A DNA stretch of 64,000 nucleotides from Eledone cirrhosa. Lineage: Eukaryota. The position numbers were made by a program, and so were the translations under genes. The notes under the pieces were generated by a model. It was not told the DNA's origin and made no database searches. It was given only the letters and a program-made list of their open reading frames with translations. Shown piece after piece: positions 3,601-27,600 of this stretch; within the stretch, counting starts at the first letter, position 1, and each line of letters begins with the position of its first letter. The stretch spans positions 12,958,001 to 13,022,000 of the forward strand of contig OZ024750.1 of NCBI GenBank assembly GCA_964016885.1, read 5' to 3'.

Positions 3601-6600
3601 AGAGAGAGAGAGAGGAGAGAGAGAGAGAGAGAGAGAGAGAGAGAGAGAGAGAGAGAGAGAGAGAGAGAGAGAGAGAGTAAATAATTGTTTCTACTTTTGG
3701 CACAAGGCCAGCAATTACTCAGTGCAATATTGAAAATTTATTTTGTTTTATATTTATTGATACATAATAAGATGAATGCTGATTTTAATGATAAATGCTC
3801 TCCATTGGTTTCAATGAGTTTTCCTGTTGTTTTAATCAAAGAGATGGCTTATTTGTTAGATTCATGTGTAAGAGGTGGATTATTCTACTAACCCATAACA
3901 TAATTCTCATGGAGATTTAGCATAACACAGTGTGTAAAGACAGCCCCTTGAGTTATAGATAGTCAGTGTGATAGGCTTCCACAGTTTCTATCTATGCAAT
4001 TTCCTTCACAAGGCTTGAGATAAGCCAAGGCTATGAAAAAAGACACTGGCTCAAGATGTTGGACTGAACACAAAGCCTCATGACTGGAGTAAACTTTTTA
4101 ACCATTTTACCATGTTGTATTTTTTGTGCTGGTTAATTAATAAAAAATTACTTTAGAAGAAAATGTATGACTTACTTATGTCTCTAGTTGGTATTGCAGA
4201 CTCTAATGATTCTAATGGTGGACTTTCTCCTTCCTCATTAACAGCAATCACACGGAAGTAATATTCTGTTCCTTCAACTAAACCAAGAACTCTGGCTACA
4301 GTAGTTTTAGGACCAACTTCTTCCGCTTTGAGCCATGATAAACGTGCAACAGATCTTACTTCAACAATGTATTTAGTGAGTGGAGTACCTCCATCACTCT
4401 CAGGAGCTCTCCATTCGAGGTCAACATAGTCATAAGAGACTTTAAGAATATCAAGTGGTGCTTTAGGACGAGATGGTACACCTGAAGAACACACAGAAAA
4501 AAAAGTATAACATAACATATGTTAAATGTATTTGAAGATGTAAATCATAATATACTAGCATTAGCATTTTTAGTATTACAAACCAAAAATCATTTCAAGA
4601 AAGAAAAATCCAAAATGTAACATTTTCCAGACATTTATTCTACAATTATTTGCCATTAACACATAAAATAACGGGTAACTATTGATGATAGCAACATGAA
4701 AGATGAAATAAAGAGTAGATAATGTAGCCATCATAGTTTAGATATGTGAAAAACCTTTCATTACTTACTGAATGAGCTCTTTGCCATTGTTGCAGCATCC
4801 GTCTCCAATGGATCACTAAGTCCAATTTTATTGATTGCAGTAACTCTGAAGTCATATTCACAGTTTTGTCTCAATTCTTGGACACAGTAACTTGTTATTG
4901 ATGGTGCTACCTTAGCCACATTATTCCAGTATTGTCTATTAGCTTCTTTCTTTTCAATAATATAACCAGTAAGAGGACTTCCTCCATCATCTTCTGGAGC
5001 TTTCCAGGAAATGGAAATAGATGTTTTCTCGATATCATATGTTTTCAGAGGACCAATTGGTTTTGATGGTCGTTCTGAAAATACAGAAAAGTACACAGTG
5101 ATATTAATAACAAATCTCAGTTTCCACTCATGAAATATCAACAGAAATATCAGCTTTATTGACATCAATTAGAGAGATATAATAAATGACTTACCAAGTG
5201 GTCTCATTGGTGTAACGGCATATTCTGCATCACAGTATGCACTTAAACCAGCTTTGTTCTCAGCTTGAATACAGAAATAATAAGATAAATTCTGTTTCAA
5301 GTCTCTTAAATGACAACTATGTTCAAAAGCTGACACAGTTTTCAATTTTTCTTTCACATCAGATGATGCACCAACTTCAGATATGATATAATTGGTAATC
5401 TTAGCACCTCCATCTGAAAGTGGAGTTTTCCATTCCAGGATTGCAAAATCAGGGCCAACCTGTGTGGCTCTGAAGTAAATTGGCGGACTTGGTGGTTCTG
5501 AAAAATATTCAATGAAATATTTTTAATATAAATTATTAATTGATAATCTTTAATGCACTGTAAATAACAATATTCTGAAAATTTAAAAACAAGAAAGAAT
5601 TCTAGTAAAATATAAAATTCAACTCACCAATCTTTTTCATTGGTTTTGTGACATCAGAGGATTCAAGTGGTTTACTCTCTCCTTCAGCATTAACAGCAAA
5701 GACACGGAAATGGTAATTTGTATCTTCTGTTAGGTTTGGTACAGTAAATGTGGTGGTCTTCTCATTAACAGAACCAGCTTTAGTCCAGAATGTTCTGGAA
5801 TCTACTCTGTGTTCTATAATGTATCCAGTTATTGGTGTACCACCATCATTGGCAGGAGGCTTCCAGCTCAGGTCAGCAGAGTTATTTGTGACATTTGTGA
5901 TGTCCAAGGGACCAAGTGGTGCAGATGGGACATCTATAAGATGATCAAAAGACATAGATAAATGTATTAAACTGTGGACTTTTACTGTTGTTATATTATG
6001 AACTTCATAAAACATGTTATTTGAGGTCAAGAAGTTGGTATACATGGAAGGATTGATTGAATTGCAATAGTAAGCTAAGTGAGATTTGAATTAAATATAT
6101 GCATGTGTTAGTTTGATATGCATATGTGTACATATTAGTTTATCAACAATGTTTAAACTGTTTAAAGTAATTGATTACTTTTGTTTATATCCCACATAAA
6201 CAACGTATCATTACATAACCTTTTGATGAAGATGAGTGATATATATTGTCCTTTATATGTAACAAGTGTATAACTAAAATATAAGCCAGCAACACCTGTC
6301 ATCCAATCCATACCAGCATAAAAAGACTAGTGTAAAAATAATAATGATAATTATGATCATGAACAAAAAGAAAACTGTACTTACCAAATGGACTTTTAGC
6401 CATTGTTGCCTCTCTTGTCTCTAAAGGTTCACTCTCTCCTACTTTGTTCTCAGCAATCACTCTAAAGTGATACATAGTTCTTTCTTTAAGATCTTTGACA
6501 CAATATTCTGTGGTATCTGCACGAACCTTATCAACCTTTGACCAGTATCGAGCAGATTCAGCACGTTTTTCAATGATGTATCCAGTAATAGGAGAACCAC

Positions 6601-24600: not shown

Positions 24601-27600
24601 ATTTTTAATATAAATTATTAATTGATAATCTTTAATGCACTGTAAATAACAATATTCTGAAAATTTAAAAACAAGAAAGAATTCTAGTGTAATATAAAAT
24701 TCAACTCACCAATCTTTTTCATTGGTTTTGTGACATCAGAGGATTCAAGTGGTTTACTCTCTCCTTCAGCATTAACAGCAAAGACACGGAAATGGTAATT
24801 TGTATCTTCTGTTAGGTTTGGTACAGTAAATGTGGTGGTCTTCTCATTAACAGAACCAGCTTTAGTCCAGAATGTTCTGGAATCTACTCTGTGTTCTATA
24901 ATGTATCCAGTTATTGGTGTACCACCATCATTGGCAGGAGGCTTCCAGCTCAGGTCAGCAGAGTTATTTGTGACATTTGTGATGTCCAAGGGACCAAGTG
25001 GTGCAGATGGGACATCTAAAAAATAAATAGAATATGTATATAATAAAAATTGATTTAGCTCATTATATAATTAAAATTTAATTTCTGTGCCTTAAATGTT
25101 GCCATTGCTTCAAGTTATTTTAATTAATTTATCTATTAACAACCTGTTATTATTTAGCAGGAATTAGTTGAAAATGTCCTTGTTAATTCAAATATTTGTA
25201 TTACCTAAATGACATGTAGTAAACTAAATGACTTTAAATTTATTTTGTTTTGAAACTTTCAAGAATGTCTTGCTAATGTAGTTTTATTTAATGCAAGGTG
25301 TTAAAAGTTAAAATAACATTTTGTTTTAACATTAAAAGCAAGTTTTAAGAAATGCATTGAATAAATATAAACTGTACTTACCAAATGGACTTTTAGCCAT
25401 TGTTGCATCTCTTGTCTCTAAAGGTTCACTCTCTCCTACTTTGTTCTCAGCAATCACTCTAAAGTGATACATAGTTCTTTCTTTAAGATCTTTGACACAA
25501 TATTCTGTGGTATCTGCACGAACCTTATCAACCTTTGACCAGTATCGAGCAGATTCAGCACGTTTTTCAATGATGTATCCAGTAATAGGAGAACCACCAT
25601 CATCAGTTGGAGCTTTCCATTTGATGCTGATAGAAGTACGCTTGACATCGATAACAGTAAGGGGACCAACTGGTTTTGATGGAACCACTGAAAGTAGATT
25701 AATAATTCACATAAACATCTTTCCTTTGATAACTGACATATGCTAAAGTTTTGAAATAGTTAAGATTGAAATTGTCTACTGTTTTGTTTCTCTTTTTGTA
25801 ACAATTCAAGAATATTTTACATTTCAACTGAATTAATTTGTTACTTACACAGGCCTTTCTTTGTTGTAATTGCTTTTGGTGTTGTGACAGGAAGACTGAC
25901 ACCAACTTCATTCTCAGCTGTTACTCTAAAGAAATAATCCATGTTTTCTTCAAGTTTTGTTGCTCTACAGTAAGTTTCAAGTGATGACACCTTTGCAAGC
26001 CTAACCCATTTATCTGGTACTTCTGCAGAAATTTCAATATTGTAAGATGTAATTGGAGTACCTCCACTGAAAACTGGAGAATTCCAATCTAATTCTATGA
26101 AATTTTCACCAATCCTCGATGCTCGTAAGTTGGCAGGTGGGTCAGGAACAGCTGCAAGTTTATGGAATAAAATAAATTAGTAAAATAAAATATATTTAAT
26201 AAATTAATATAAGACATAAAAATAAAAAGGCTTGTTCAGTTACATATATATATCCAATGGGCTACCTCATAGTTTCCTTTTACTAGATTTTACAAGGTTT
26301 TTGTCCAACTGAAGTTATGATAAAAGACAGTTAACTGAGGCACCACATATGATATATAATGTCGTTTGGAAGTGAACTTCTAATCCATGCTAATATAATT
26401 ATATTTTTCAAATAAACTTTCAAGTATATTACCATTAAGTTATATAACATAAATATATATATCATATCTAATTGAACATAACTATTTTACTACATCTATA
26501 TCACTTAATTCCATTGGAGTGCATTTATTTCATAATTAAATTTGAAAATAATAAATATAATAAAACAAGAAGAAACTTTTTAAAGCAGAAATATCAAAGA
26601 TTCTCATTCTTTTTTGAAAGAAACAATATAAAAATATTAGGACATGACCCTCCCCAAATATAACAATATAAAAATATATTTAGTAAATTAATATTTTAGA
26701 AATATTGAATATAATGTAACTCACTCAATTTTTTCATTGGTCTTATAATTTCTTTGGCTTCAAGTGGTCGACTGTTTCCTTCAGAATTCATAGCTATTAC
26801 ACGGAAGCAATATTCTGTTCCTGGTATCAGATCTTTAGCAGTAAATGTAGTTGAACGTGCGTCAACTGTGCCTGCTTTAGACCAAGTACTTCTGGTGACT
26901 GATTTGTATTCAATGAGATAACCTGTAATAGGAGATCCTCCATCATTTTCTGACGGCTTCCATTCTAGATCCACTGAATCTTCAGATACGGCATGGATTA
27001 CTAATGGACCAACAGGAGGAGATGGAACATCTGAAAAGATTATTAAAAAATTATCAGATTTTTTGTTGTTATTGATGCTACAATAATTAATGGAATAAAT
27101 TCTGTTAGAAACTAGATTATAAAAGTTCAGGGAAGTGTTTGAAGGAAATATATATAGGGTGTGTATATGTATATATATATATTATATATTATATATATAT
27201 ATATATATATATATATATATAGTAAAAATAATAAATGTGAAGACTAAAATCCAAAGTAATGTCTTCCTGTTTTCCTTCGGCTGTAACGTTTTTGAAAATA
27301 TTTTTTTGTTTCAGAAGACCCCGTTAAAGGTGAAAGCAGCAATTCTTTGCTTAAACTTTAATCTGTTATTCTAATATATGTGTGTGTGTGTTGGGTGTGT
27401 GTATGTGTGTGTGTGTATGTGTGTGTGTAAAAATATATATATATACACACACATTCAGTATTGTGGAATGAGATCTTAAATGTTTACATGTTTACTCTTG
27501 TTATAAAAACTACTTATTTTTAATTTCCAAGGCAAATATTATTAAAACAAAATTGAATATTAAGTACCTCTAGGACTTCGTGCTAATGTTGCTCCATCGC

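Follow-up and report, generated by a model that had tools for sequence, protein, structure and literature searches.

The nine-exon units of a giant Fn3 gene

We analyzed a 64,000-nucleotide stretch of the Eledone cirrhosa genome (contig OZ024750.1, positions 12,958,001 to 13,022,000; hereafter the window), which has 32% G+C and zero N and is crossed by a gene encoding a long array of fibronectin type III (Fn3) domains (Table 1). Exons were counted by scanning the minus strand for phase-1 exons across the window, which gave 84 single-domain exons of 294-306 bp each, an additional single-domain exon at 48994-49299, and one exon holding six domains. Pfam fn3 matched in all four stretches tested. 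A periodicity analysis of 90 of the 91 domains revealed a three-domain period nested within a nine-domain period: mean amino-acid identity was 0.50 at an offset of 3 and 0.66 at an offset of 9, with ~0.36 at offsets 1 and 2, and in the upstream part alone it was 0.54 at an offset of 9. Four of the nine-exon repeats, named U1-U4 with exons p1-p9 in transcript order, are old units that share near-identical patches, probably through nonreciprocal, in-register gene conversion.

Exons and introns are homogenized in patches

Exons p2-p6 of U1-U4 differ from one another at 0-24 sites per 303-306 bases, and from the next upstream unit at 72-105 where lengths are comparable. The original prediction that p2-p6 are near-identical in all four units held for most copies, but not for U1 p4, which differs from the others at 19-20 of 303 sites, or U4 p6 (17-24 of 306). 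For p1, p7 and p8, near-identity is limited to the U2/U3 pair (1, 13 and 1 differences), and p9 takes a middle position, with 29-54 differences among U1-U3. The two exons predicted to match, E59 and E68, taken here as 15620-15922 and 9984-10286, differ at 13 of 303 sites; E50 and E77 are diverged from them (94-111 of 303), as had been claimed. In each of the 30 comparisons of core exons (p2-p6, six pairs of units), only 0-5 of 39-57 four-fold sites vary, as against 13-19 of 25-41 between core exons and the upstream unit. Because four-fold sites are also homogenized, the likeness of the core is not due to protein constraint alone.

The shared introns and segment that had been listed were all recovered, with z values of 25-168 against 40 shuffles. 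The 120-bp p4/p5 intron is common to the four units (116-120 of 120 positions in all six pairs), and the 130-bp intron at 5498-5627, 18677-18806 and 24580-24709 matches at 126-128 of 130 in three pairs. The intron at 13240-13614 equals that at 19646-20020 (373 of 375), the intron at 12568-12933 equals that at 25016-25381, skipping U2 (354 of 366), and segment 4649-4768 equals 23731-23850 (117 of 120). The introns at 9824-9983 and 15459-15619 agree at 150 of 160 positions ungapped, owing to a 1-bp indel, and at 132 of 133 in the interior. The U3 p3/p4 intron is a version of the 130-bp intron in which 369 bp occupy the place of 12 bp in the other three units. Among the 54 same-slot intron pairs of U1-U4, 21 are homologous (two of them copies of a dispersed repeat and one marginal) and 33 are without homology. 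U2 and U3 share three introns in full, a number that no pair exceeds, and slots p6/p7 and p9/p1 have only dispersed repeats in common in any pair. Intron lineages shared in full have a shorter median length, 160 (n = 5), than unshared introns, at 468 (n = 23; p = 0.016).

Older layers of sharing were also found: the U2 p2/p3 intron is ~72-74% alike over 99 nt, and the flanks of the U3 p3/p4 intron are ~80-90% alike. Each is an older form of a shared intron and bears indels, showing that introns do leave the pool.

The shared patches measure 0.3-1.3 kb, are 92-99% identical including at synonymous sites, and lie beside unalignable introns. Tracts of at least 90% identity sum to 1.9-2.2 kb in five pairs of units (two of these sums include dispersed-repeat copies) and to 3.3 kb in U2/U3, so that sharing falls little with distance. 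The p6 exon is an island (Table 1), and U4 p2 is likewise homogenized with at most 14 nt of shared intron. Of the 25 variable sites in p6, 19 lie in the outer 100 bp, versus 32% expected (p = 8e-6), 15 of the 25 being U4-specific and hence nonindependent. Differences at exon ends, beside unshared introns, are expected if tracts fail near heterology. The claim that units above about 26 kb have escaped was borne out: in offset-9 exon pairs that include an exon above 25.8 kb, exact matches extend over no more than 21 nt, and homology with the introns of the next upstream unit was found in 0 of 36 intron pairs.

Table 1. Coordinates of the Fn3 gene, its repeat units, shared tracts and repeats
Feature	Position	Strand	Description
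Host gene	334-63755	-	86 exons, 91 Fn3 domains; phase-1 introns; both ends open (beyond the window)
U1	21457-26151	-	p1-p9; p1 (25849-26151) and p7 not homogenized
U2	14379-20323	-	p1-p9
U3	8047-13917	-	p1-p9; sole unit checked against sequencing-run contigs (8750-14010)
U4	1183-7828	-	p1-p9; p1 and p7-p9 not homogenized
Upstream array	25849-63755	-	Not homogenized; offset-9 pairs at most 76% amino-acid identity; exact runs 8-21 nt
Six-Fn3-domain exon	50465-52291	-	1,827 bp; without internal introns; domain spacing normal
p6 island exon	10410-10715 (U3); 22990-23295, 16430-16735, 4176-4481	-	92-99% alike; at most 14 nt shared intron per side
Longest shared tract, U1 = U4	23731-25018		p3-p5 core with 130-bp and 120-bp introns; 1,288 bp; 97.7% to 4649-5936 (U4)
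U1 core tract versus U2	23731-25018		97.2% to 17942-19139 (U2)
U1 = U3 tract, skipping U2	24691-25723		p2, 366-bp intron, p3; 98.5% to 12243-13275; p2 with 0/306 differences
U2 = U3 tract	19334-20323		p1, 375-bp intron, p2; 98.9% to 12928-13917
U2 = U3 tract	15114-15928		p7, 160-bp intron, p8; 98.0% to 9479-10292; unit-specific intron on both sides
U3-only insert in p3/p4 intron	11832-12200		369 bp; contains a high-copy dispersed repeat; 12 bp here in other units
Dispersed repeat copies, 110-220 bp	724-1139, 2759-2886, 3304-3528, 8512-8708, 14008-14229, 14846-15004, 44749-44966, 56526-56674

Contig depths and splicing

Logan contigs of four public runs (X1, X2, X4 and X5) were aligned to 8750-14010. 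X1 and X2 are DNA runs; X4 and X5 were treated as RNA solely because their contigs skip introns, none of the runs listed as matching being recorded as RNA. In X1, single contigs had depths of 8.4 and 11.7 over unique introns and, over two-copy tracts, 20.3 (p8), 19.7 (p7 with its intron), 25.9 (p1 with its intron) and 18.2 (366-bp intron). Depth over the core was 36.4-43, and 24.4 at the join of the 130-bp intron form. X2 gave the same pattern at lower depth, with 6-8 over unique introns, 14-15 over two-copy tracts and 23-31 over the core. These depths would correspond to one, two, three and four copies, near 1:2:4, in agreement with the assembly. Contigs of X4, from the same organism as X1 and X2, skip six U3 introns exactly among the joints listed, indicating that the gene is transcribed and spliced as modeled.

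Patchy divergence and the extent of tree conflict

Four units allow three possible unrooted groupings. Four of the five subset matches fit U2+U3 versus U1+U4, namely the 375-bp and 160-bp introns (U2 = U3), the 120-bp segment (U1 = U4) and the 130-bp intron, in which U3 is the exception. The sole intron that conflicts with this grouping is the 366-bp intron (U1 = U3), and five informative exon sites in p2, p4 and p6 also back another grouping. It had been claimed that no single duplication tree fits. The patchy divergence is indeed unexplained by one history, but the conflict is narrower than claimed, being confined to the U1 = U3 tract and the five exon sites.

The patchy divergence is the stronger argument, with 33 of 54 intron pairs unalignable beside exons that differ at so few four-fold sites. 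U2 and U3 differ at 2 of 375 positions in one intron and, where the following intron can be aligned, at 28 of 99 (Fisher p = 9e-19), and in that second intron, p2/p3, U1 and U3 differ at 12 of 366. U1 and U3 differ at 116 of 303 sites in p1 and at 0 of 306 in p2. A single duplication history is ruled out because patches of 0.3-1.3 kb with 0-3% divergence adjoin unalignable introns. A GENECONV-like permutation over p1-p8 returned p = 1.0 for U2/U3 and p = 0.002-0.2 for other pairs; the polymorphic sites come mostly from unconverted exons, and the test, being badly posed, carries no weight here. Synonymous and intron sites are both homogenized, and tracts shorter than the unit change partner along it, with one strong topological conflict, as concerted evolution requires. 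The original interpretation is right in essentials, with less tree conflict than it claimed.

Comparison with a second organism

Run X5 comes from a second organism (organism B), whose spliced contigs differ from U3 by 5 of 237 to 18 of 304 sites per exon (2-6%). Its p2-p4 lie together on a 1,021-nt contig of depth 86.7, each exon differing from U3 at 14 sites; depths were 45-55 for U2/U3-type exons and 27.1 for U1-type p7. Such depths are at most a hint of nonreciprocal transfer at constant copy number. Since organism B carries both U1-type and U2/U3-type p7, and hence at least two unit types, the units are likely older than the species split.

Copies within this genome are closer to each other than to organism B in p3 (0-2 of 306 among copies, 14 of 306 between organism B and U3; p = 0.004) and in p1 (1 of 303 between the two copies here, 18 of 304 to organism B; p = 6e-5). 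This does not hold for U1 p4 and U4 p6, whose distance to their paralogues is as great as that of organism B to U3. Two sites have A in all four copies of this genome but another base in organism B and the upstream unit, namely T at 11089 and G at 13203 (25 exon rows checked). Because organism B differs from U3 more than most copies here differ among themselves, homogenization likely continued after the split, a classic sign of concerted evolution, though from limited data. At 10669 and 10684 in U3 p6, organism B's aligned contigs all carry the base found here only in U4, a hint that organism B may have had a different donor copy for p6.

Probable gene conversion and alternative explanations

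Gene conversion or unequal exchange had been proposed to act on this part of the gene, and our results support that proposal. Of the two, conversion is favored because no pair of units, which are 5.8-7.2 kb long, shares more than 3.3 kb in sum and no single tract exceeds 1.3 kb. Protein constraint would likely keep matching exons similar enough for pairing, and conversion between in-register units would then repeatedly overwrite patches. Tracts of ~0.3-1.3 kb would run through short introns (120, 130 and 160 bp, and twice 366-375 bp) and end where an indel, a repeat insertion or a long divergent intron interrupts homology. The p3-p5 core, with the shortest introns, may thereby keep itself homogeneous in U1-U4; for p7-p1, exchange would occur chiefly within the U2/U3 pair, and the upstream units are probably too diverged to join. 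No sign of GC-biased conversion was found in third-position G+C (0.18-0.32 in core exons versus 0.16-0.35 upstream) or in singleton changes (22 weak-to-strong, 21 strong-to-weak).

Repeated unequal crossing-over, with gain and loss of whole nine-exon units, might instead have made chimeric units. It is the mechanism proposed for the dumpy PIGSFEAST repeats (PMC2930355), the nine-exon block of human TTN varies in copy number (PMC9142044), and the largest shared total, 3.3 kb, is that of U2 and U3. However, duplication of a unit would copy nine introns and U2/U3 share three in full, with only dispersed repeats in slots p6/p7 and p9/p1, and the 306-bp island exons would need double exchanges, which are in effect conversion. 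We consider this explanation unlikely.

Exon-only tracts could have been templated by spliced RNA or complementary DNA (cDNA), the shared introns then being due to conversion at the DNA level. Homogenization of p6 in four units and of U4 p2 with at most 14 nt of shared intron would fit such a template, as would the six-domain exon that is without five adjacent introns, the loss of adjacent introns being the pattern expected from cDNA-mediated intron loss. Nevertheless, five introns are homogenized, which requires an intron-containing template, 0 of the 36 introns of U1-U4 have been lost, and DNA tracts halting at heterology would yield the same exon-limited shape, making an RNA template unneeded. 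We therefore regard it as highly improbable, and as very unlikely the broader proposal that RNA-templated overwriting of the island exons and formation of the six-domain exon by the same route occur in a mollusc Fn3-only family that repeatedly forms patches in different lineages.

Another possibility is a phasing error in which the assembly interchanged the p2/p3 introns of U1 (366 bp) and U2 (227 bp); in the true order, all tracts would then fit U2+U3. Undoing this swap alone would remove the one strong conflict, and no record spans the contig-checked stretch. However, U1 and U2 p2 differ at eight sites with a longest identical run of 141 bp, which ordinary reads span, the window is free of N, and the patchy divergence would still require conversion; there is little room for such an error. 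Polishing can homogenize paralogues, and the exons encode folded domains, but purifying selection or an assembly artefact (polishing or false duplication) as the cause of the likeness has a negligible chance, given that four-fold sites and whole introns are homogenized, that most long introns are unit-specific, and that read-derived contigs collapse the copies near 2x and 4x depth, matching the assembly's copy numbers.

Several points nonetheless weigh against gene conversion as we describe it, or against the data behind it. The edge pile-up of p6 is absent in p3, p4 and p5 (1 of 3, 3 of 25 and 3 of 9), which mostly border shared introns, and some short introns (123, 142, 152 and 161 bp) are unshared. 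The topological conflict involves a single intron, and its skip from U1 to U3 rests on the assembly order, the contigs being unable to phase across p2. The contig check covered 5.3 of 21.6 kb, about a quarter of the region, X1 and X2 come from one sample that is possibly the assembly's own source, and summed depth is unsafe as a measure of copy number. Because Logan contigs drop small variants, organism B's collapsed contig is no proof of identical copies there. The fixed differences amount to two sites among the 40 rows listed of 325, and one of them, 13203, has G in X1 too (23 of a depth of 62.5), which other Fn3 exons probably contributed.

Other features of the window

The six-domain exon stands out in a gene whose other exons each encode a single domain, and looks like the product of a precise loss of five adjacent introns. 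The nine-domain period recurs far upstream (54038-54802 and 61814-62597, 74-76% amino-acid identity), with a register shift near this exon. The 110-220 bp dispersed repeat, presumably of the short interspersed nuclear element type, lies mostly in the U2-U4 introns from p6/p7 through p9/p1, with none within the homogenized core; the dispersed repeats may be of an octopus type. Fragments of a high-copy repeat, with depth in the thousands, lie at 12798-12836 in the U1/U3-shared p2/p3 intron and at 11852-11938 in the U3 p3/p4 insert. A 46-bp minisatellite (17.3 copies, 89% matches) occupies 20557-21350 in the intron between U1 p9 and U2 p1.

Identity of the host gene and comparable systems

No Ig-coding exon was found in the scanned exon series of the window, which has Fn3 only, with periods of 3 and 9. 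Twitchin and projectin interleave Ig and Fn3 domains and have a C-terminal protein kinase domain; the 91 consecutive Fn3 domains here contain no Ig, and the C-terminal coding part of the gene lies beyond the window; Octopus bimaculoides twitchin (P0342) has gaps of 195-301 amino acids between Fn3 motifs and a best identity of 39-48% to the window's domains. As far as the window shows, the host is thus probably not twitchin. Nor does it have the layout of the vertebrate titin A-band, which consists of repeats of Ig and Fn3 domains (PMC12198301). Dscam arrays use one exon per transcript, with conversion absent in the account of PMC3236188; here spliced contigs join p2-p8 consecutively in order and the copies are homogenized.

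The best protein match was Lottia gigantea P0001, a "hypothetical" Fn3 array with 48% identity to the six-domain exon, and a search with P0001 found Bulinus truncatus P0235, a "hypothetical" Fn3 array of 4,143 amino acids. Like the host, both have uninterrupted Fn3 domains, a three-domain period and a near-identical patch of their own: P0001 domains 9-15 are 98-100% identical with a period of three, and P0235 domains 11-17 form a smaller patch (99%, 89% and 77%) in an otherwise diverged array. Unlike the host, their homogenized period is three, not nine, and both are known from protein models alone. Six Fn3-rich proteins from outside the molluscs (three from Saccoglossus and one each from Patiria, Diadema and Lingula) had no such patch: they lacked a three-domain period, and identity between their domains reached 84% at most, although motif-based splitting may miss domains. 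No close relative was present among the 120 matches listed per window-query protein search (proteins up to 5000 amino acids), the best identity being ~51%. The host looks like an uncharacterized Fn3-only, titin-like giant protein of molluscs, and may have a role in muscle. Our literature survey, which took in few subscription papers, found nothing on this gene or on such a pattern in molluscs.

The process itself is known from dumpy, spider silk genes and HMA4, and the present case is a well-resolved new example, not a new mechanism. A simulation of interlocus conversion at Arabidopsis halleri HMA4 describes a contrast between short and long introns under divergence-dependent conversion (10.1101/2025.10.29.685298). 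As here, exons and short introns of the HMA4 tandem copies are homogenized in tracts of hundreds of base pairs and long introns escape; here, however, the units are parts of a single gene, have a much greater age, with unalignable introns and synonymous sites near saturation, and shift partner from tract to tract. Argiope MaSp2 spidroin genes also have repeated exon-intron units with homogenized introns, including alternating types, but according to PMC9779670 most introns of a type are ~98% alike over the length of the gene, with coding repeats of low complexity, whereas the host encodes folded Fn3 domains and its units are homogenized only in part. Drosophila dumpy PIGSFEAST is likewise a local concerted patch in a giant modular protein, but is described as one large exon, ascribed to unequal crossing-over, with no intron mosaic (PMC2930355). 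The thrice-repeated nine-exon block of human TTN resembles the host in its near-identical multi-exon blocks within a giant titin-family gene, but comprises PEVK exons and is described as a segmental duplication with copy-number variation (PMC9142044); as far as tested, the shared number nine is a coincidence. The NEB triplicate also has near-identical multi-exon blocks. Searches of PMC6469411 for "concerted" and "gene conversion" gave no match. According to PMC5100051, concerted evolution among metazoan domain repeats is rare.

With four units, nine intron slots and several tract ages within 22 kb, the locus offers a natural test bed for conversion that depends on divergence and intron length, in which the places where indels removed an intron from the conversion pool are visible. 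It also calls for caution, as trees built from the domains of giant repeat proteins may mislead, and so may variant calls made there from short reads. The Fn3-only giant protein of molluscs appears to have a homogenized patch in each of three lineages.

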